UHGV virus genome: UHGV-0148877
Strand: one strand, 5' to 3'
DNA from: a virus
Length of the DNA stretch: 40,227 nt
Below are positions 1 to 8,754 of this stretch, in pieces. How positions within the stretch are numbered: position 1 is the first letter of the stretch; every line of letters begins with the position of its first letter. Under the pieces are notes generated by a model, which was not told the DNA's origin, did not search any database, and was given only the letters and a program-made list of their open reading frames with translations. The translations under genes were made by a program, and so were the position numbers.

Positions 1-483
1 CTATCTGGTCAGGGTGTCGTACTGTTTTTCACAGACTCTTCCGGCTTCGGCTGCCCGGTCAGCATACTCTGCCAGTTGTCTGTTTCTCTCGAGAGATTTA
101 CTGAGCACGTCGGCAAGCAAAACTCCGGTGTCTGCGGCTGACGTCCCAGCGCCGACAATGGCGTTATACTGCCTGAGCTGCTCACGGATGGCAACGAGCT
201 GTTGCTGCAACCGGCCAGCGCGAGCGGCAGCATCAAGAGCATCATTGCGCGCCTGGTCGATCCTCTGCTGCGCTTCACGTTCATTGATCGCTTTCTCCTG
301 TTCGTAGTGCTGACGAATTCTCTCATCTTCGGTTTTGCGGTCTTCTTTCGCCTGCGCATACCCGGCGTCGTACTGACGACTGCCGTGTACACTCCAGGCA
401 ACAACTCCTGATATGACCAGAACAGCAAGCACCGCCATGATAATCAACTGTTTCCGGTATGCTTTTACGAATGCCCAGATCAT
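1..483 (-). CDS. Rz-like inner-membrane spanin (i-spanin)
   Basis: 160 aa; N-terminal TM segment ([17 protein letters not shown]) followed by a charged coiled-coil-like region; ATG at 483 overlaps the endolysin stop (ATGA); contains an embedded +1-frame lipoprotein ORF. Stop codon is at positions 1-3. Confidence 0.6.
9..284 (-). CDS. Rz1-like outer-membrane spanin lipoprotein, embedded in the Rz gene
   Basis: Alternative frame inside Rz; ATG at 284 gives [26 protein letters not shown], i.e. a basic n-region, hydrophobic core and LAGC lipobox, then a Pro/Ser-rich mature part. Embedded architecture as in lambda Rz/Rz1. Confidence 0.55.
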   Translation of the reverse strand: MNVKRSRGSTRRAMMLLMLPLALAGCSNSSLPSVSSSGSITPLSALGRQPQTPEFCLPTCSVNLSRETDNWQSMLTGQPKPEESVKNSTTP

Positions 484-1109
484 ACCGCCAGCACCTTACT
501 GGCATTGATGTATCGCGCGCGCCGGTCGTCGATGCCGTTCCGGCCACCATTGATAATCAGAGTTACACGTGCAATATCGCCGGTATACTTCATGCATCCT
601 TTGCTGGCAAAGAACCACGCCGCGCTACGAGCCGCGTATTCGTCCTGCGCCAGCAGTTCAGGACTCTCCAGCAGGTCAACCTTAAGACCGTTTCCACAGT
701 CACGATAGTTATTCAAACCGGTAACCTGGATAAGCCCGCGCCCACGGTAGTTCCAGCCATCACCAGGGGCATTGTTCCCCATGCGTTTGCTGTACACCAG
801 ATTGGCAATCGCTCTCTGGCGCTCAAGTGGCAATGGTGGTTCGCCTGCACGTCGCCCCAATGCGTTGGCCTGTCCCTGAGTGAGACGCCCAGCCCGAACA
901 AAGTTAGCCAGTCCGCTGACGCTGTAGTTGAAATTCTCCTGCAACCGGGTGAAGCCTCCAGACTCATGCCCGACCTGAGCAATAAACATAGCCTGATCTT
1001 CTGGTTTGCTGATACCAAACTCTTTCATCGCAGAAGTTATATGCGAGAACCAGCGTGCGGCCAGTGCCTCGCTGATACCAGCAGCTCGCTGGAATTGTTT
1101 AATCTCCAT
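480..1109 (-). CDS. Endolysin, GH19 (chitinase-like) family
   Basis: 209 aa; motifs [24 protein letters not shown] and INGG recalled as typical of GH19-type phage endolysins; ATG with GAGG RBS; last gene before Rz/Rz1. Confidence 0.85.
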
Positions 1110-1407
1110 GTTTAGACCTCGATACTTTGAAAATTTGAACGACGTTACCGCGCGTTTTAATAACCGCAGCTAGCATGACAGCGTTGATAATGACCTCAGA
1201 TAAATCCACAGCCATTGGCGTACGTAACCAGATTGCATAGGCGACACGAACAGGAATACTGGCCGCAGCAACAATCAGGAAATAAGCAAGCCATCCTCCC
1301 CACCTTCGGTGTTGAGAGCCGTTACGCCGGAATGTGACAACGCGAATTGCTATGCCAGTGCAAATAACTGCATTGGTGATAAGCAAAAAAAACTCATGCG
1401 TTACCAT
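1099..1407 (-). CDS. Holin-like small membrane protein (holin or antiholin)
   Basis: 102 aa with about 3 predicted TM helices; ATG at 1407 with GGAG RBS; overlaps the endolysin start by 11 nt. Confidence 0.5.
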
Positions 1408-1798
1408 CGTCTTTTCTCCCCGGAATTAACTCGCGTGGATTATCGGAACGGTGATAGAGCCATATACCAATACGCACAGCGACAATTGCTGACACGAATG
1501 CGCCTGCAGAGAAAACAATCCCTTTTTCAAAAGAGTCCTGCGTGATGGTAGGGATCAGGCTGGCTATGCCGATAAGAATTGATGCTGCTGGTTTGTAAAA
1601 GAGAAGGCCGCAAAGAAAGCTGAGCATCGACAGGAGCACCCGGCGACGGATGGGGTACTCTACTGCAGAGGTAACAAAAATTACCGCTCCAGCCAAAGCA
1701 CCCAAAGCAACCTCAGGAGGAACTCCTGCTATCACCGCCGCCAGAGAACTCATGCTAAGCCACTGATTTAAAGTTTCACTGGTTAGTTGAGCTGACAT
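1394..1798 (-). CDS. Putative holin (membrane protein)
   Basis: About 134 aa with several TM helices, immediately upstream of the lysis genes; ATG at 1798 preferred over the track's GTG at 1807. Confidence 0.5.
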   Translation of the reverse strand: MSAQLTSETLNQWLSMSSLAAVIAGVPPEVALGALAGAVIFVTSAVEYPIRRRVLLSMLSFLCGLLFYKPAASILIGIASLIPTITQDSFEKGIVFSAGAFVSAIVAVRIGIWLYHRSDNPRELIPGRKDDGNA

Positions 1799-2000
1799 GT
1801 TTTCCACCGTTTATATGCATAACAACCTCCTGAACAGTAAAGCATTACGCATAATAAACCATTTATGGTTTTTTGTTACTTTAACATCGTCAATTCCCTG
1901 TTTTTCATGCCGAGAATAAAGCTCACCTTTTACATGACTCTGAAGAAACAAACAGTGAAGAGCAGGTTGAATACCGCACCATTTAATGGCGCGGTAGCAG

Positions 2001-2297
2001 TCAAATAGAGAAATAAACACAAAAACAAAAAACAACAGGAACAGCAAAATCCAACAGACTTCCCACATCCCACACGCGTGGATCAAAACCTCCCCACCAC
2101 GGCATGTTGATACGTTTCCCTTTCCCAAACTTTTCTATCCAGCGATATTCTGCCTGGGTGTGTTCACGCGCAATGAAGAACGTACAACCGGCTATCGCAC
2201 CGTAAGCCCAGTTTCCGGTAAAAATACCAACCAGTACCTGAGCCACAAAAGCGCAAAGCGAGTGAAGAAATGGAGTGACATCAATGCTCTTAATCAT
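2001..2297 (-). CDS. Small membrane protein translationally coupled to the tailspike gene
   Basis: 98 aa; ATG overlaps the tailspike stop (ATGA); two hydrophobic segments; function unknown. Confidence 0.45.
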   Translation of the reverse strand: MIKSIDVTPFLHSLCAFVAQVLVGIFTGNWAYGAIAGCTFFIAREHTQAEYRWIEKFGKGKRINMPWWGGFDPRVWDVGSLLDFAVPVVFCFCVYFSI

Positions 2298-4483
2298 GAA
2301 ACTTCCCCATTGGTTGAAAATATGGCTCCTCCAACGCCAAGTGTATTTCGTGTTGTGCTCAACCTCAGAGGGCTGGAGTCAGAATTAGAATATCCTGTAG
2401 CAGAAATAAAAGATCCTCCACTAATAGTCAACTGCGGAACATCGGCTATATCTGAATAAGTTCTGTCAGCAACAGTATTATTTATAGCCACATATGATCC
2501 AAAAAAACTTCTTATTGTTTGGTTTTTAACTTTACTTCCTTCAATGGTTATCCTACTACCACAGTCGGCAATAAATCCTGAATCTGCATCCAGCGTTGCA
2601 TTCATAAAAGAAGCTTCAGCTCTCTCTACATCAATCCATCTAATATCTTTTGTGGGATTTGCACCAAATACATGACAAATATTAGAGTTAAACCTTACAC
2701 CATCTTGGAGGTGCATTAATTTTTTTATATCTGTACCCCATAGCCTTGGAAAATTAACAGATGCTCCTGCATGGCAATCAAATCCCAGCTCAGCCCCTGA
2801 GATATCTACAGCCTTTCCTGAAATAACAGCACCAGTGTCTGCATTAACGGCTGTTCCACAATTGCGCATATCATTACCAGCAACATCAACGCAACCCGCA
2901 CCATCAATACGCACACCAAGTGCACATCCATAAAAACCTTTTTCAATATTTGGTTCAAGGACTTTACCACTTGTTTCTGCATCACTTTCTTCAACGTCAT
3001 GTCGTCTTGCATCAACATATGCTGTATGAATGCAGGTTAATCCACGATATGAGCAATGTATAGTTTTATGGTCGCGTATATTAACATTTGAACCATCTCT
3101 TACATTCCATCCTATATAACAATAGCTTGCACTTGACCCCTGAAAATCTGCTTTAACATTATAAATACAATTAACTGACGCAACCGTACTCTCTGTGCAC
3201 CGTTCAAACTTGCTTACAGGCATTGATGCCTTGACATTATTTACCAGTTGCAGGGAAGAGTATCTGCTATAAGAAAAATCACATACGTAATACCCTTCTG
3301 GCATATATGCAGCAACACTTTCCTCATCAGGAGCACATCCGGTATGATATGCACTAATTTTTGCACCAAAACTACCATGAATTCCAACGTAGAACTTTCG
3401 AGCACCTGAATACGGATAGAAATTAAGTTCAGCTTTTTGAGTTACAATAAATGCACAAACATCGCTATCATCTCTATTTTCTTCGATCTGAATAGCAAAT
3501 ACAGGACTTTTTGCTGCATCGCAAATGTAAAATAAATACTTGTATTCGTAATACGTTCTAACGATTTTAGTAAACAAACGAGTGTCAGAGAAAACCACTG
3601 AGTCTTCTGATGTTATTTTAATCCAAGACAAATCAACACCTGAACTGAATTCAATTTGATAGTTGATAATATGCCCGGTCTTAATTCTTATTTCGCAGAA
3701 AGCATTACCACCATCCCACATAGGTCTCATTGACTGGGCTGCAATGATTGCATCTTTGAGTGTAGGGTAATCACCCCATTCGCCAACAGTAATAACAAAA
3801 GTATAATATGAGTTAAAAACAGCGGCATTTTTGCCTTTGGATATCAACTCCTTAATCATAAAAATATTATCTTCGTAATCACAAGGAGAAATTATATCCC
3901 TCATTTTGCTTTGAAATGTTCGTTGTCTTGCCCCGCTTCCTGACGGTATAAACCAACCAAAACCACCAACAACCCCGGCGATTGCAGCATCGACATAATT
4001 ACGCATTGAGCGATTATTTACAGCGTCCTGCTCAAATGATGGATCTGCAAGGTTAGAAATTTTGTTTTGCTTTGCATCGTAATATTTTGCAAGCAAAGAT
4101 GGTTTCATCAATGCACGTCTGAACCACCCAAAACATCGCTGGATCAGCATCGTCAGGTAGTCAAATGCATCTTCATGAACTTCGGGGAAAAATTTTCCCT
4201 GATTGCGAAGATCAGTCTCCTGCACCACATCAAGCACACGCTCTATCGTAATTCGCCAGCCAGCAGCAAGCGGAGACGGAAGAACCACAGAACCGCCACT
4301 ATAAGTGCCCGCCCCAGTTACCGTATAACCGGTATCCAGAACCAATTCTGTTACGTTCCCGTTCAGGTCAGACACCTGAACAACCAGGTCTGATTTTTTG
4401 AAAATACGAAAAGTATACGGAAACGATGTCGTAACGCCGTTACCTGTGTATTCGTTGTGGTCAACTTCGGTTGAGACCGTCAT
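2294..4483 (-). CDS. Tailspike / receptor-binding protein
   Basis: 729 aa; N-terminus MTVSTEVDHNEYTGNGVTTSFPYTF resembles the conserved particle-binding domain of podovirus tailspikes; rest is Gly/Ser/Asn-rich as in beta-helix depolymerases; ATG with GGAG RBS; the C-terminal two thirds is visibly more AT-rich than flanking DNA. Confidence 0.8.
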   Translation of the reverse strand: MTVSTEVDHNEYTGNGVTTSFPYTFRIFKKSDLVVQVSDLNGNVTELVLDTGYTVTGAGTYSGGSVVLPSPLAAGWRITIERVLDVVQETDLRNQGKFFPEVHEDAFDYLTMLIQRCFGWFRRALMKPSLLAKYYDAKQNKISNLADPSFEQDAVNNRSMRNYVDAAIAGVVGGFGWFIPSGSGARQRTFQSKMRDIISPCDYEDNIFMIKELISKGKNAAVFNSYYTFVITVGEWGDYPTLKDAIIAAQSMRPMWDGGNAFCEIRIKTGHIINYQIEFSSGVDLSWIKITSEDSVVFSDTRLFTKIVRTYYEYKYLFYICDAAKSPVFAIQIEENRDDSDVCAFIVTQKAELNFYPYSGARKFYVGIHGSFGAKISAYHTGCAPDEESVAAYMPEGYYVCDFSYSRYSSLQLVNNVKASMPVSKFERCTESTVASVNCIYNVKADFQGSSASYCYIGWNVRDGSNVNIRDHKTIHCSYRGLTCIHTAYVDARRHDVEESDAETSGKVLEPNIEKGFYGCALGVRIDGAGCVDVAGNDMRNCGTAVNADTGAVISGKAVDISGAELGFDCHAGASVNFPRLWGTDIKKLMHLQDGVRFNSNICHVFGANPTKDIRWIDVERAEASFMNATLDADSGFIADCGSRITIEGSKVKNQTIRSFFGSYVAINNTVADRTYSDIADVPQLTISGGSFISATGYSNSDSSPLRLSTTRNTLGVGGAIFSTNGEVS

Positions 4484-4586
4484 GTTAAATCTCCAGATAG
4501 TCGCAGCACCCGTTGCGCCGCATATCTGGTTATTCTATTACCTGAAAAACCACATATGGATAGAAAGGATGTAAATACGAATAGAT

Positions 4587-4603
4587 ATTACCTTTCGGGT
4601 AAT
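4587..4603. promoter_or_regulatory. Operator palindrome ATTACC-TTTCG-GGTAAT
   Basis: Perfect 6+6 inverted repeat, about 75 nt upstream of the SOS-regulated small gene; an upstream hybrid copy ATTACC-TGAAA-AACCAC lies at 4538-4554. Confidence 0.55.
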
Positions 4604-4639
4604 TTGCAAAACGTGCTGGATAGCAAACAAATTATTTGC

Positions 4640-4659
4640 TACTGTATAAATATACAGTT
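4640..4659 (+). promoter_or_regulatory. LexA (SOS) box TACTGTATAAATATACAGTT
   Basis: Perfect CTGT-N8-ACAG with AT-rich spacer and TA flanks (core 4642-4657), 23 nt upstream of the ATG at 4680. Confidence 0.7.
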
Positions 4660-4679
4660 ATTGCATGGAGAAGATTAAG

Positions 4680-4937
4680 ATGCAGCAGTATCACTATCCA
4701 CTGGAAGACGGATTTACCGAAAGGATTCACACGCCAGAAGGCGTCAGGTCACTGGTGGAGGGATCGCACTTGATGAAATTACTCCGGGATCTCGATAAGG
4801 ATGGATTTAATGTCGATGGCCCACTTGCCGAACTGACTGCACTGATTAACTACGTCACCAGCTCACAGATGTCTATGCAGGATCTGCAAACACATCTCGA
4901 CTATTGTGCCGAACAATTACGAAAACAAACCCGGTAA
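4680..4937 (+). CDS. Small SOS-regulated protein paralogous to the antirepressor C-terminal domain (candidate antirepressor)
   Basis: 85 aa from the ATG at 4680 (GGAGAAG RBS); LexA box directly upstream; aligns by eye (about 40% identity over about 40 residues) with the C-terminal about 70 aa of the Bro-N antirepressor at 6083-6769 (IHTPEGV/IHSPSGV, AELTALINYV/AELTTMFCYI, DLQTHLDY/DIQTHAEY). Confidence 0.5.
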   Translation: MQQYHYPLEDGFTERIHTPEGVRSLVEGSHLMKLLRDLDKDGFNVDGPLAELTALINYVTSSQMSMQDLQTHLDYCAEQLRKQTR

Positions 4938-4939
4938 AT

Positions 4940-4975
4940 TTAAAGGCCGCAAGAGCGGCCTATCGTTTCGCTTTG
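4940..4975. terminator. Bidirectional hairpin terminator between convergent genes
   Basis: AGGCCGC-AAGA-GCGGCCT hairpin flanked by A/T-rich runs on both sides, between the 4680-4937 (+) and 4960-5688 (-) genes. Confidence 0.5.
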
Positions 4976-5688
4976 TGCTCATCCCAGCACGTTTTGCACC
5001 ATGCCATTAAGCCGTCCGCATTTTGATTATTAGGGTAAAAGCTGGTTCGTTTTCTGCGGACATTACAAATTGGGCACCACTTCATATGGCGTGTATTCTT
5101 TGGGCCATCGAGACACCTTGCACACCACTTAGTCAATCCATCTGGATTTTTTGACGATTTCCTGAATTTTTCATATGGAAGGTTTATTCTGCATCGCAAG
5201 CACTGCTTGCTACCACTTGAAACTCTGTTAGCTGATTCTTCTTTTGGCGGCGATACAGAAGGTATTCTTGCTGGCTCTGATACTGCCTGAGGTGCTTTTT
5301 TAGATGACTGAGACGATATGTCATCACCAGGGAATCTTCCATGATATGCCGGACGCGTTGACACTCCAGGTGGAAGCTCAGCTGTAAACGGCTTTGGCTG
5401 AATCAGTTGCCTCTCTTTTGCTAACTCCTGCTGTTTATAATATGTCTGGATTACCGCACTATCATAAGCAGGAGGTGCGGAAATATTAGGCGCATTACCT
5501 CCAGTTTTTTGAAACTGAGTAGAGGTGTGTTCTATCACCTGTGTACGATTAATCGTTATCTCCCCATCTTCGGTCTTTATCGTTTTGTTATGATTAACGA
5601 CCGTACGATCAGAGATCTTAGTCTTGTTCTGGTTGATAACGTAAATAATCACCGCAACCACACCAACAACTATCCAGAAAACTTCCAT
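4960..5688 (-). CDS. Membrane-anchored protein with tandem Cys-rich (zinc-ribbon-like) C-terminal repeats
   Basis: 242 aa; N-terminal TM helix (VFWIVVGVVAVIIYVI), Pro/Ser-rich linker, then two repeats of C-x2-C ... DGL-x2-WC-x2-C (CLRC...DGLTKWCARC; CPIC...DGLMAWCKTC); AT-rich; no family recognised. Confidence 0.55.
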   Translation of the reverse strand: MEVFWIVVGVVAVIIYVINQNKTKISDRTVVNHNKTIKTEDGEITINRTQVIEHTSTQFQKTGGNAPNISAPPAYDSAVIQTYYKQQELAKERQLIQPKPFTAELPPGVSTRPAYHGRFPGDDISSQSSKKAPQAVSEPARIPSVSPPKEESANRVSSGSKQCLRCRINLPYEKFRKSSKNPDGLTKWCARCLDGPKNTRHMKWCPICNVRRKRTSFYPNNQNADGLMAWCKTCWDEHKAKR

Positions 5689-5707
5689 TGCTTTTCCTCA
5701 CAATAAC

Positions 5708-5724
5708 ATTACTTTAAAGGTAAT
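5708..5724. promoter_or_regulatory. Operator-like palindrome ATTACT-TTAAA-GGTAAT
   Basis: 9/10 core match, 20 nt upstream of the start of the minus-strand membrane-protein gene (5688). Confidence 0.4.
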
Positions 5725-5800
5725 ATCTTGCTTTCAGGTGATCAAGCGTTAAACGCAATCAACCAAATACGGTTGATTTTAATATTTCTTCGCGTTTATC

Positions 5801-5817
5801 ATTACCTTTGCGGTAAA
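5801..5817. promoter_or_regulatory. Operator palindrome ATTACC-TTTGC-GGTAAA
   Basis: Perfect TTACC-N5-GGTAA core in the divergent region between the membrane-protein gene and the antirepressor gene. Confidence 0.5.
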
Positions 5818-6082
5818 TTTACATCGCACTCCTCTTGTGCCATAGTAATCGGGCACTGGCAAAATCCAGTGCCGGGATTGGCGTCCCGAGTTACTACAGA
5901 GGCACATATGCCGCATAAGCGGTTTTTTTATGTGTAAAGCGCACCTATTCTATGGTGGGCTGTGTGGGGGCACCGAAAGGTGCGCCGGGTCCTTTGTAGC
6001 CGGTTACGCCAACCCTGCACAGTTCACCACCAACCGATTGGCGTCGGTAGTGGTGATTAACCTAACTACAAAGGTGATCGCT

Positions 6083-6769
6083 ATGACTGCTAACGTAACC
6101 CCATCTGTTTTTCATTTTGAATCAGAAGCAACCATTCGAGCCATTGTTATTGATGGAAATCCTTGGTTTGTTGCCAAAGACGTTATTAAAGCTCTTCAAC
6201 TGACAAACCCCACTATGTCAATAAAATCTCTTGATGATGATGAAAGGGCTAAATTTAACTTAGGCCGTCAAGGCGAAACCAATATTATCAACGAGTCAGG
6301 CCTCTACACACTGATCCTCCGCTGCCGCGACGCAGTGACACCAGGCACTATCCCCTACCGCTTTCGTAAATGGGTTACAGGTGAGGTTCTTCCTCAGATC
6401 CGCCGCACCGGAAGTTACATTAAAAACTCGCTCCCGCAGGAAGAACGCATAAAGATGGTTGCCGACCAGGTAGCCAACGCCACGGCGTCAGCAGTAATGC
6501 AGGCGATGAAGATAGAGAACAAAACCTACAGTGCCCCACTGAAGCCCGGCTACCGCAGCCTGATTCATTCGCCGTCTGGTGTTCTCGGCCTGACGGAGAA
6601 CTCACTGCTGATGAATCTGCTGAACCAGTTACAGGACGACGGGCACGACGTATCGGGCGCGGCGGCGGAGCTGACCACCATGTTCTGCTACATCGTCGGT
6701 GTGAGCAAATGCCTGCGTGATATCCAGACGCACGCGGAGTACATCAACGACAAGGCAGGGTTCTTCTGA
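6083..6769 (+). CDS. Antirepressor with Bro-N domain
   Basis: 228 aa from the ATG at 6083 (AAGGTGA RBS); N-terminus IRAIVIDGNPWFVAKDVIKAL matches the Bro-N pattern; C-terminal domain paralogous to the 4680-4937 product. Confidence 0.8.
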   Translation: MTANVTPSVFHFESEATIRAIVIDGNPWFVAKDVIKALQLTNPTMSIKSLDDDERAKFNLGRQGETNIINESGLYTLILRCRDAVTPGTIPYRFRKWVTGEVLPQIRRTGSYIKNSLPQEERIKMVADQVANATASAVMQAMKIENKTYSAPLKPGYRSLIHSPSGVLGLTENSLLMNLLNQLQDDGHDVSGAAAELTTMFCYIVGVSKCLRDIQTHAEYINDKAGFF

Positions 6770-6777
6770 CGGGCGGC

Positions 6778-6800
6778 GGCACAGGGATGTGCCTTTAAAT
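6778..6800 (+). terminator. Possible intrinsic terminator after the antirepressor gene
   Basis: GGCACA-GGGA-TGTGCC hairpin followed by TTTAAAT. Confidence 0.35.
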
Positions 6801-6813
6801 AATTCTGTACAGA

Positions 6814-6842
6814 TTGCAGACTGTGGGTGAATAGCGTACTAT
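6814..6842 (+). promoter_or_regulatory. Sigma70-like promoter (TTGCAG-17-TACTAT) overlapping an operator
   Basis: -35 TTGCAG at 6814-6819, 17-bp spacer, -10 TACTAT at 6837-6842; the palindrome at 6841-6857 overlaps the -10 and start region. Confidence 0.45.
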
Positions 6843-6857
6843 TACCTCAAGGGTAAA
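6841..6857. promoter_or_regulatory. Operator palindrome ATTACC-TCAAG-GGTAAA
   Basis: Perfect TTACC-N5-GGTAA core overlapping the -10 of the promoter that reads into the toxin-antitoxin-like pair. Confidence 0.5.
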
Positions 6858-6916
6858 CGGATTGGTTTCATTTTTATTAATCCGTGTAATGAACTTATGA
6901 GATATGAGGTAATGTC

Positions 6917-7096
6917 ATGCGAAACGAAAAATTGCAGATGCGTAGAGCGCAAGCTGCCGCAAGACGTTCTTTCAATGGAAGCGTAGAGTGCGTAAAAGTT
7001 ACTATGACAAAAGATCACGCAAGTCGCGTATCCCGCGCTTTCTTTGATTCTCGTAACAATAAGGAAAATTATGAGTTCGTCTGCGTCGCAGAATGA
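6917..7096 (+). CDS. Small basic protein, candidate antitoxin (below the ORF-track cut-off)
   Basis: 59 aa (MRNEKLQMRRAQAAARRSF...), ATG with GAGGTAAT RBS; overlaps the start of the downstream toxin-like gene by 26 nt, the usual antitoxin-toxin arrangement. Confidence 0.3.
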   Translation: MRNEKLQMRRAQAAARRSFNGSVECVKVTMTKDHASRVSRAFFDSRNNKENYEFVCVAE

Positions 7097-7616
7097 TAAA
7101 AATCAAATTGTCAGATATAAGGGTCGAGTATTGCATACGCAAAATTTCTCGGCCCTTTGTGCATCTGATCTTGAGCTGAAGAAAGTATCTGATGCCTTTA
7201 CCCAGTATTGGAAAACGGGATACCATCCATCTCTTGGTAAAGATGCTGCATTTGCTCGTCCGACAGAAATGCTTAAACTAAATGTCAGGCATACTCATGT
7301 CGATAACCAAGACTATATTCCAGAAGATAGTGATAAAAAACACACTGGTAAAAAATCATCTTGGGATGCATGGAAAAAAATAGCGTCTGTGCAAGTAAAA
7401 TGCATACCAACAAGTAATTGCTTTTTAGTTTATTCGGTAAATCACAATCGTGATGCGCTGGTTATGTTTTTTGTTGACGCAGATGCCCACAACATAACTG
7501 AGCAAGAAGAGTTTAAAGAGGCAGCAATCACTATCAGTTATCAATTCTTTGAGAAAACAAAAACAGAACCAATGCCTTTAGAAGAAGATCTTTTTTCTGA
7601 TAAATGGAAGGAATAA
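7071..7616 (+). CDS. YafO-like toxin-family protein (putative ribosome-dependent mRNA interferase)
   Basis: 181 aa from the ATG at 7071 (AAGGAAAA RBS); segments DAFTQYWKTGYHPSLGKDAAF, LKLNVRHTHV and CFLVYSVNHNRDALVMFFV resemble the conserved blocks I recall for YafO-family toxins; AT-rich; family assignment is from memory. Confidence 0.45.
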   Translation: MSSSASQNDKNQIVRYKGRVLHTQNFSALCASDLELKKVSDAFTQYWKTGYHPSLGKDAAFARPTEMLKLNVRHTHVDNQDYIPEDSDKKHTGKKSSWDAWKKIASVQVKCIPTSNCFLVYSVNHNRDALVMFFVDADAHNITEQEEFKEAAITISYQFFEKTKTEPMPLEEDLFSDKWKE

Positions 7617-7902: not shown

Positions 7903-8754
7903 TCACTGTGCAGTTTTCGCTGATCGATTTTCAGCTCTAAATTCAAGAACCGTTTCAATATTTCTTTCCTTCAGCATATCAATAACATTTTTATTCATTT
8001 GACTATCACTGGTTAATAACTGGTAAACGTTGCTTCTCTCTTTATCAGAGTTTTCTTTAACAGCTGCTTTGCATGCCAAATGCTTATTGAAATTTTCTAC
8101 ATCGCTAGTACAGGAATTTACGGCTGCTGATGAAATATCAGACGCTGAAGAAACACCGTCATCCAAACGTTTTATAGCATTTTCTATACATGAGTTAAGG
8201 GAATAAACGACAACTGAGCGATACCCTTCAGACGCACACCATTCTAAATTTCTTGAAGGATCGAGTGGTTTTACTTCGCTGGATTGAATTAACTTGTCAA
8301 AAACTGACTTATATTCAATCTGTTTTTTATCTATAGCCCATACTTCAGTAGCTGATTTATAATTCCCCGTATGCCTATTAACATCAAATCCATGTTTTAT
8401 AAGCAAATCTGCCCATGAAAGATTTATTGATTCATTGTTATGAGGCCATTTTCCTGTCAGAACCGCCCCCATAGACCCCATATATCCGCCATATGATGGT
8501 ATAGCACCATGGCTCAGTAACTTCTCTGCAACCACAGGGCAATTAATTACATAAGAGGCGTAAAGCCCATTCCATAAAGCCCCTCTATAGTAATCGCCAC
8601 GATTAGGTTCTTTTAAGTCGATAGCCTTTGATAATTGTTCGCACGTTTTGCATGCATCAAAGTTATCCTTATTGCATTGCAATGAACTGGCAGCTGTAGG
8701 ATTTACAGAGACTATTGAAAGCACTATGCCAAAAAACAAATTTATTTTTTTCAT
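7903..8754 (-). CDS. Secreted Cys-containing protein of unknown function
   Basis: 283 aa; N-terminal signal peptide MKKINLFFGIVLSIVSVNPTAASS; about 8 Cys; strongly AT-rich relative to the structural genes; ATG 1 nt after the stop of the 1129-aa protein gene. Confidence 0.6.
   Translation of the reverse strand: MKKINLFFGIVLSIVSVNPTAASSLQCNKDNFDACKTCEQLSKAIDLKEPNRGDYYRGALWNGLYASYVINCPVVAEKLLSHGAIPSYGGYMGSMGAVLTGKWPHNNESINLSWADLLIKHGFDVNRHTGNYKSATEVWAIDKKQIEYKSVFDKLIQSSEVKPLDPSRNLEWCASEGYRSVVVYSLNSCIENAIKRLDDGVSSASDISSAAVNSCTSDVENFNKHLACKAAVKENSDKERSNVYQLLTSDSQMNKNVIDMLKERNIETVLEFRAENRSAKTAQ

Follow-up and report, generated by a model that had tools for sequence, protein, structure and literature searches.

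An exchangeable tailspike receptor-binding module and a coupled small membrane protein gene as a putative host-range cassette in an epsilon15-like Escherichia coli phage

Two overlapping genes occupy positions 2001-4483 of the virus genome UHGV-0148877, a stretch of 40,227 nucleotides (nt) that is referred to here in its entirety as the window. Both are on the minus strand, and both had been described in an earlier examination of the letters alone (the sequence-only reading). The first encodes a tailspike of 729 amino acids (aa; 4483..2294), and the second is a small open reading frame (ORF) that begins on the stop codon of the first and encodes a predicted membrane protein of 98 aa (2001..2297). 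By DNA identity and gene order, the window is assigned to an epsilon15/phiV10-like temperate podovirus of E. coli (Uetakevirus type). Its first 6 kb have 99% DNA identity with Escherichia phage HEMP4 and are syntenic with ZX5, phiV10, TL-2011b, and epsilon15 (genus Uetakevirus). Positions 2001-4483 are found at ≥99.2% identity in 11 complete E. coli genomes, and in E. coli EC332 and FDAARGOS_1285 the prophage adjoins yfgG-yfgI.

The GC content of the tailspike gene is 47.9% over residues 1-110 (window mean, 48.5%), 42.0% over residues 111-179 (45.6% for residues 1-179 together, 3947..4483), and 38.1% over residues 180-729, where the GC content of third codon positions is 24%. The window's lowest-GC stretch of 1650 nt (37.8%, starting at 2451) lies almost entirely inside this last part, and stretches of that length at or below 38.5% GC make up 0.8% of those in the 40-kb window. 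The composition of the gene is therefore not uniform, and the claim of the sequence-only reading that an AT-rich remainder follows an N terminus at backbone GC is confirmed. Its boundary at about residue 110 holds in part: the drop in GC begins there and DNA homology to epsilon15 and TL-2011b ends near residue 115, but the anchor reaches further. DNA homology persists at 95-97% through residue 179 in most E. coli relatives, and protein homology of the anchor extends to residues 166-206. Residues 1-179 (3947..4483, minus strand) were assigned as an epsilon15-type virion-binding anchor on the basis of DNA identity and matches in PHROG and PDB. The PHROG family phrog_5662 matches the tailspike from end to end, while about 20 further PHROG tail families match only residues 1-166 to 1-206. 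The only solved relative detectable by sequence, PDB chain 28lx_A (Dpo31/Dpo36 tailspike), matches residues 1-202 (E=5.5e-32). The N-terminal anchor is homologous to epsilon15 gp20 and phiV10 gp25, and at the 5' end of the gene DNA homology is 83% to phiV10 and 74% to epsilon15.

Residues 180-729 (2297..3946, minus strand) constitute the exchangeable, AT-rich receptor-binding module, as delimited by GC content, DNA comparison, and AlphaFold2 modeling. Structure prediction of the C-terminal domain, which the sequence-only reading had proposed, gave a confident model (predicted local distance difference test [pLDDT], 93.9) that is nearly all beta and in which the predicted fold is a right-handed parallel beta-helix, as is characteristic of the C-terminal part of Uetakevirus tailspikes. 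The best fold match obtained with Foldseek was the tail protein of Staphylococcus phage Andhra (8egr, E=1.9e-13), and further matches were to PL6 lyases, the P22 tailspike, GH28 enzymes, and CBA120 tailspikes. No relative of this domain was detected by sequence among solved structures. Across 2297..3946 there is no DNA homology to sibling prophages. P22-like phages carry much of it: positions 3666-2038 recur at 97.7-97.8% identity in JEP4 and in locus L015, and at 98% in JEP4, HZ41, and several E. coli prophages, where they stand behind a P22-type head-binding domain. The module thus has an internal breakpoint near residue 273 (window 3666). Relatives at 37-89% protein identity are found behind PF09008, PF18668, PF12571, and PF03906 anchors, and the module is present on at least five anchor types besides the epsilon15 type. 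The proposal of a mosaic tailspike, in which a conserved anchor is joined to a module that moves by horizontal exchange, is accordingly upheld by the same module at 98% DNA identity on the P22-type anchor of JEP4 and by its relatives on four further anchor types. Two relatives of the receptor-binding domain (P0278 and P0281, at 5001-7592 of loci L101 and L102) have an extra C-terminal GDSL/SGNH esterase domain, which suggests that they may be combined depolymerases and deacetylases; in both loci a homologue of the small ORF again comes next, after 9 nt.

The edges of the module were located by comparison with relatives. The recombination breakpoint that the sequence-only reading had expected a domain-wise comparison to reveal was found mainly at residue 179 (window 3948), where the homology shared with six E. 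coli relatives that have different receptor-binding domains breaks off; it falls at residue 197 with one further E. coli relative and at residues 115-145 with epsilon15, TL-2011b, and phiV10. On the other side, homology to siblings with other receptor-binding domains returns at 2285-2219, a few codons past the start of the small ORF, and homology to P22-like phages (JEP4) stops at 2038, near the 3' end of the small ORF. Since homology resumes inside it, the small ORF is the right-hand homology arm wherever it is present. In siblings without the small ORF (ZX5, phiV10, TL-2011b, and epsilon15), homology returns only at about 1822-1870. The small ORF is an accessory gene: sibling phages lack it or have O-antigen conversion genes in its place. 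Its sequence variants cluster in part by receptor-binding domain and in part by backbone. These comparisons show 2001-4483 to be a putative host-range cassette in which the receptor-binding module is bracketed by the anchor and the small ORF. Residues 180-729 would be swapped among phages by homologous recombination across two conserved arms, the virion-anchor domain (residues 1-179) upstream and the conserved small gene downstream. The overall best explanation of the locus, to which a probability of about 60% is given, is a portable host-range cassette with a coupled accessory membrane protein for which a role in the envelope is proposed.

The tailspike part of this arrangement is an ordinary, already described modular design. 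The tailspikes of Uetakevirus (epsilon15 gp20 and phiV10 gp25) and Lederbergvirus (P22 and HK620) likewise combine an anchor with an exchangeable beta-helix domain, the same receptor-binding domain is common to tailspikes of both genera, and the position before the lysis genes is Uetakevirus-like. Such modularity has been described for Uetakevirus and Lederbergvirus tailspikes in a study in which residues 1-205 of the phiV10 tailspike served as anchor (PMC10408124). There is no essential difference between those tailspikes and the one in the window, in which the internal breakpoint near residue 273 is additional.

The two genes are joined by an ATGA overlap (2294..2297, minus strand). The junction reads ...GGGGAAGTTTCATGATTAAG, and within GGGGAAGTTTCATGATT the tailspike stop codon TGA and the start codon ATG of the small ORF share the letters ATGA; a Shine-Dalgarno-like G-rich run lies 7 nt upstream. 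The start of the small ORF on the tailspike stop codon, as described in the sequence-only reading, is therefore confirmed. A gap of -4 is present in 15 of the 15 sampled loci that have the receptor-binding domain of the window, on three different anchors, and the junction is recognizably homologous in an Aeromonas media prophage. Because of this conservation, the overlap is beyond chance, and co-expression of the two genes is plausible. The usual start of the family (MD...), four codons downstream, is ATT in the window and CTG in Aeromonas, so translation must begin at the overlapping ATG, which is the only standard start codon of the small ORF. The NCBI annotation of the identical gene in E. 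coli EC332 (L007 6001-6285; compare window 2283-2297) gives a product of 94 aa that would start at ATT. ATGA overlaps are also found in three further, distant contexts, and each receptor-binding type has a fixed junction of -4, 10, 29-40, 79-80, or 333 nt. The small protein would be made late, together with the tailspike, through translational coupling.

The small ORF (2001..2297, minus strand) is a full-length member of phrog_1443 (E=3.3e-55, residues 5-98); 'Ybl63' is the UniProt name under which one source lists an identical protein. The family signature H12, (A/G)RE..QAE.R, W76, and P87 was present in alignments. PHROG 1443 carries no assigned function, no relevant paper naming phrog_1443 or Ybl63 was found, and searches of Pfam, NCBIfam, and PADLOC gave no match (the only PADLOC hit, at E=0.088, is noise). 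A profile search of PDB sequences with the family gave no match even at E=10. The AlphaFold2 model of the 98-aa protein (pLDDT, 91) has three predicted helices (residues 8-27, 30-57, and 78-97), in agreement with the earlier call of a membrane protein, and has no specific structural neighbour. When 56 diverse relatives were searched against Pfam, only scattered chance matches were obtained (PhoR, VirB3, and one to Phage_holin_8 at E=0.0036), and an HGSNAT_cat match (E=0.06) in one Sphingomonad homologue was discounted as an effect of the composition of membrane helices. Among the 56 members, the conserved core consists of H12, R44, E45, Q48, A49, E50, W76, and P87, and the core motif is (A/G)REHxQAEYRWI...MPWWGGFD. 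The conserved loop contains seven Arg/Lys residues and is therefore predicted, by the positive-inside rule, to face the cytoplasm.

The possibility that the small gene is kept mainly as a landing pad for recombination, with a product of little function in itself, derives from the breakpoints within it (2285-2219 and 2038), from the separate fixed junction of each receptor-binding type, and from small-ORF clusters that are mosaic, following both receptor-binding domain and backbone. Selection, however, acts on the protein and not on the DNA: among 54 distinct E. coli-type alleles, the median ratio of nonsynonymous to synonymous substitution rates (dN/dS) is 0.18 at a dS of 0.41, and it is 0.06 in the loop (residues 44-77). 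Moreover, invariant residues are shared by members from Alpha-, Beta-, and Gammaproteobacteria and from Desulfovibrio, and a start codon was re-created upstream where the usual start was lost. A mere landing pad is thus an unlikely account of the gene. The small ORF is a real gene under purifying selection with a conserved accessory product.

The family is widespread. A word-indexed search found 428 clusters, and an exhaustive profile search that covered 1.8 billion representatives gave 438 matching representatives at 50% identity; the best 150 of these 438 are stand-alone proteins of 58-142 aa with no domain fusions. The small ORF is present in 35% of complete E. coli genomes (1918 of 5426), with a median of 2 copies, and family members are also found in Aeromonas, Leclercia, Pantoea, Comamonas, Acidovorax, Sphingomonads, and Desulfovibrio. 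Its association with receptor-binding genes was assessed in 88 loci, comprising the window and fetched phage, prophage, and IMG/VR loci, by taking the nearest upstream ORF of at least 150 aa on the same strand. In 87 of the 88, this ORF encodes a tailspike or tail fibre, with at least 10 C-terminal types in phages of podovirus, siphovirus, and myovirus type. In the sole exception, an IMG/VR prophage (L046:4424-4927), an IS1-transposase-like ORF lies directly upstream of the small ORF. Among the upstream genes are those for epsilon15-type tailspikes, which between them have seven different receptor-binding domains, and for P22-type tailspikes, which have two of these domains. Others encode lambdoid side-tail-fibre proteins that end in a chaperone-like domain and a 595-aa fibre whose N terminus looks P2-like. 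The same arrangement is found in the lambda-like phage 1H12, in E. coli B, in P2-like prophages of Aeromonas, in Comamonas, and in Desulfovibrio. In a P2-like prophage of Aeromonas media, the receptor-binding domain of a tail fibre is 68% identical, and a 53%-identical small ORF comes next. Homologues follow gpJ in Comamonas and tail fibres in metagenomic P2-like phages and in P2-like phages bearing diversity-generating retroelements. In a Desulfovibrio metagenome-assembled genome (MAG; L168:1112-4210), a 935-aa tailspike with an epsilon15-type anchor is followed by an overlapping small-ORF homologue; thus, the bracket of anchor and small ORF extends beyond the Gammaproteobacteria. In phage Lambda_1H12 (L096:5386-8835), the next genes after the small ORF are cargo on the other strand, the sitABCD manganese/iron transporter genes, and the small ORF therefore ends the late operon there.

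Its place immediately downstream of the receptor-binding gene, often with translational coupling, raises the question of whether the small protein is a membrane-tethered factor for the assembly, maturation, or localization of the receptor-binding protein that replaces the tail-fibre assembly protein. The position right after the fibre gene is that of Tfa/gpG-type chaperones, and the lambdoid loci that were examined have no annotated, intact gene for tail-fibre assembly next to that for the fibre. The small protein shares this position with Tfa and gpG, but it lacks a tail-fibre-assembly domain and, by prediction, is an integral membrane protein; no known fibre chaperone is one. Its occurrence is independent of the receptor-binding fold (beta-helix tailspikes, S74-type fibres, and gpJ), and tailspikes of this kind are not known to need separate chaperones for folding. 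In addition, the sibling ZX5, which lacks the small ORF, is a characterized temperate phage, and there are chromosomal copies unlinked to any phage. An assembly function is consequently very improbable.

These chromosomal copies were found in Sphingomonas arvum (L169:3872-4186) and two MAGs (L163 and L165), in which a full-length homologue lies right after the chromosomal NAD-dependent ligase gene ligA, among housekeeping genes (dienelactone hydrolase, prmA, MBL hydrolase, and MCP). The small-ORF family is therefore not confined to phages.

The sequence-only reading had suggested that a membrane protein coupled to the receptor-binding protein could act in receptor modification or exclusion. 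In its receptor-specific form, the small protein would modify or mask the O-antigen receptor of the coupled tailspike and so shield lysogens or progeny, as do Oac, GtrABC, and gp21/gp22. P22 GtrABC, phi80/N15 Cor, and T5 Llp are surface-conversion or exclusion genes beside receptor-binding genes, and the slot after the receptor-binding gene is indeed the site of O-antigen conversion genes: between tailspike and lysis genes, phiV10 and TL-2011b have oac, and epsilon15 has the genes for wzy-beta and an alpha-polymerase inhibitor. Similarly, in the P22-like phage JEP4 and in locus L023 the small ORF lies between the tailspike gene and int, where P22 carries gtrABC. The small protein is a membrane protein and, like Oac and gp21/gp22, the product of an accessory gene that is interchangeable among siblings in the same slot. 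The small protein has no similarity to Oac, Gtr, Wzy, or Iap, and alignment with epsilon15 gp21 (the alpha-polymerase inhibitor) by hhalign gave a probability of 0.06%. Members that are 77-100% identical to it are found behind 10 or more receptor-binding types that are unrelated to one another, the side-tail fibres of lambdoid phages and P2-type fibres among them, and small-ORF clusters track the phage backbone more closely than the receptor-binding domain, so there is no co-variation with that domain. The small ORF is on the late-gene strand, the same strand as the tailspike gene to which it is coupled; in epsilon15 and phiV10, by contrast, the other strand carries the conversion genes. O-antigen modifiers are transcribed independently; the small ORF, judging from its 4-nt overlap and the lack of a promoter-like site, probably is not, and no promoter was seen upstream of it in a promoter scan. 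The small protein is a predicted three-helix inner-membrane protein with a conserved cytoplasmic loop, in contrast to outer-membrane lipoproteins and multi-pass transferases, and its most conserved part is thus not predicted to face the cell surface. Finally, some copies stand beside ligA in chromosomes. Because the family does not track the receptor, is unlike conversion proteins, and lies on the late strand with the known conversion genes opposite, modification of a specific receptor is highly doubtful.

Downstream of the small ORF, after a gap of 193 nt, is the lysis cassette (1..1807, minus strand), which was identified by Pfam and PHROG matches and is syntenic with those of epsilon15 and phiV10. 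It encodes a Phage_holin_8-like membrane protein (1807..1394), a holin (1407..1099), a GH19 endolysin (1109..480), and an Rz-like spanin (483..1). The small protein, with its three predicted membrane helices and its position directly upstream of two holin-like genes, an endolysin gene, and a spanin gene on the same strand, could be taken for a lysis-timing protein (a holin, antiholin, or similar) that belongs to this cassette. T7 offers a parallel, as its holin gene 17.5 lies directly after the tail-fibre gene 17, and in the metagenomic loci L094 and L095 a lysozyme gene follows the small ORF at a distance of 2 kb, with four small ORFs in the interval. However, ZX5, phiV10, epsilon15, and TL-2011b share the lysis cassette without the small ORF, and in P22-like and lambda-like phages the small ORF stays by the tailspike or fibre gene, next to int or cargo (sitABCD), with no lysis gene near. 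The small protein matches no holin family (the hhalign probability against the neighbouring Phage_holin_8 protein was 0.6%), it has no charged C-terminal tail but a hydrophobic end (...CVYFSI), and its strongest conservation is in the loop rather than in the membrane helices. A role in lysis timing is unlikely, if slightly less so than a mere landing pad.

Directly 3' of the small-ORF stop codon, RNA folding predicts a stem-loop of 11 bp without a U-run (1972..1996, minus strand); the region 2003..1808 folds with a minimum free energy of -50.1 kcal/mol (z = -2.3), and a terminator scan called no intrinsic terminator after the small ORF. An RNase III processing site is annotated at the equivalent position in epsilon15, before the lysis genes, and the stem-loop may be a processing or stabilizing element rather than a canonical terminator. 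Upstream, an intergenic region (4484..4664, minus strand) separates the tailspike gene from a divergent gp19-like gene (4665-4937, plus strand). This region presumably holds the promoter of the tailspike unit; a promoter scan detected no sigma-70 consensus on its minus strand. The tailspike gene is set apart from the other structural genes, as in epsilon15 and phiV10, and with a divergent gp19-like gene upstream and holin, endolysin, and Rz genes downstream it has the gene order of an epsilon15-type tailspike.

Three further genes in the window were noted. A 242-aa protein (4960-5688, minus strand; phrog_6762) has a hydrophobic N terminus and two C-terminal Cys-rich stretches that weakly match endonuclease VII and Lar-like zinc-ribbon families and Stc1. 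A 190-aa ORF (7044-7616, plus strand) has a sub-threshold match to the YafO toxin (E=7.6e-5), and a gene at the equivalent place in the FDAARGOS_1285 prophage carries a YafO family toxin annotation. A 283-aa ORF (7903-8754, minus strand) with a signal-peptide-like N terminus, no Pfam match, and a low GC content (about 40-42%) looks like cargo.

The most likely role of the small protein, put forward tentatively, is a receptor-independent function in the envelope or in exclusion, for example, late blocking of the entry of further phages or of the damage they cause. The cytoplasm-facing, positively charged loop (AREHTQAEYRWI...MPWWGGFD) would bind or modify a broadly conserved host component in the inner membrane or close to it. 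T4 Imm is an inner-membrane superinfection-exclusion protein, and the small protein may be compared with Imm and with P22 SieA as a small to medium-sized phage protein of the inner membrane that is dispensable for growth. By this analogy, a receptor-independent block of the SieA/Imm kind would fit the lack of co-variation between the small ORF and the receptor-binding domain. In PMC10883804, SieA is described as a protein made from the prophage whose action is confined to P22-like phages. The small-ORF family, which spans podovirus-, siphovirus-, and myovirus-type phages as well as non-phage chromosomes, is set apart from SieA as portrayed there.

Several observations weigh against the portable cassette with an envelope-acting accessory protein, or against parts of it. 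The linkage to receptor-binding genes is looser outside the phages of enterobacteria, Aeromonas, and Comamonas: of 20 upstream proteins from non-Escherichia species, tail families were matched by 7, chromosomal ligA accounted for 3, and 10 had no assignment, and one distant member of the family has early phage genes as its neighbours. A location at the end of the late operon may also explain part of the adjacency to the receptor-binding gene. The small protein has no homology to anything functionally assigned, and its conserved loop is predicted to face the cytoplasm by the positive-inside rule only. Late co-expression without a visible promoter of its own is unexpected for an exclusion gene expressed from the prophage. 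The chromosomal, non-prophage copies point to a general cellular activity over a dedicated anti-phage device.

In the context of other phages, the small protein may, somewhat more speculatively than its proposed envelope role, represent an undescribed class of inner-membrane factors that are linked to receptor-binding genes in temperate podovirus-, siphovirus-, and myovirus-type phages of Proteobacteria. Such factors would be produced along with the tailspike or fibre, act from the cytoplasmic face on a conserved host component, and provide protection independent of the receptor, either as superinfection exclusion or by protecting the envelope of the infected cell. At the same time their genes would supply a universal downstream homology arm through which receptor-binding modules become portable among unrelated phages.

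The tailspike is one more example of the known rule that a conserved anchor is joined to a swappable receptor-binding domain. The small gene, which is strongly conserved and carried by roughly one in three complete E. coli genomes, frequently as several copies, is worth testing at the bench. If it marks the downstream boundary of the cassette in many phage families, it would be a landmark with which to find and delimit host-range modules in prophages, and it would also be usable for homology arms in the swapping of tailspikes in engineered phages and tailocins. If the small protein is a general exclusion or envelope factor, it would be a new and very common prophage-encoded trait in E. coli.

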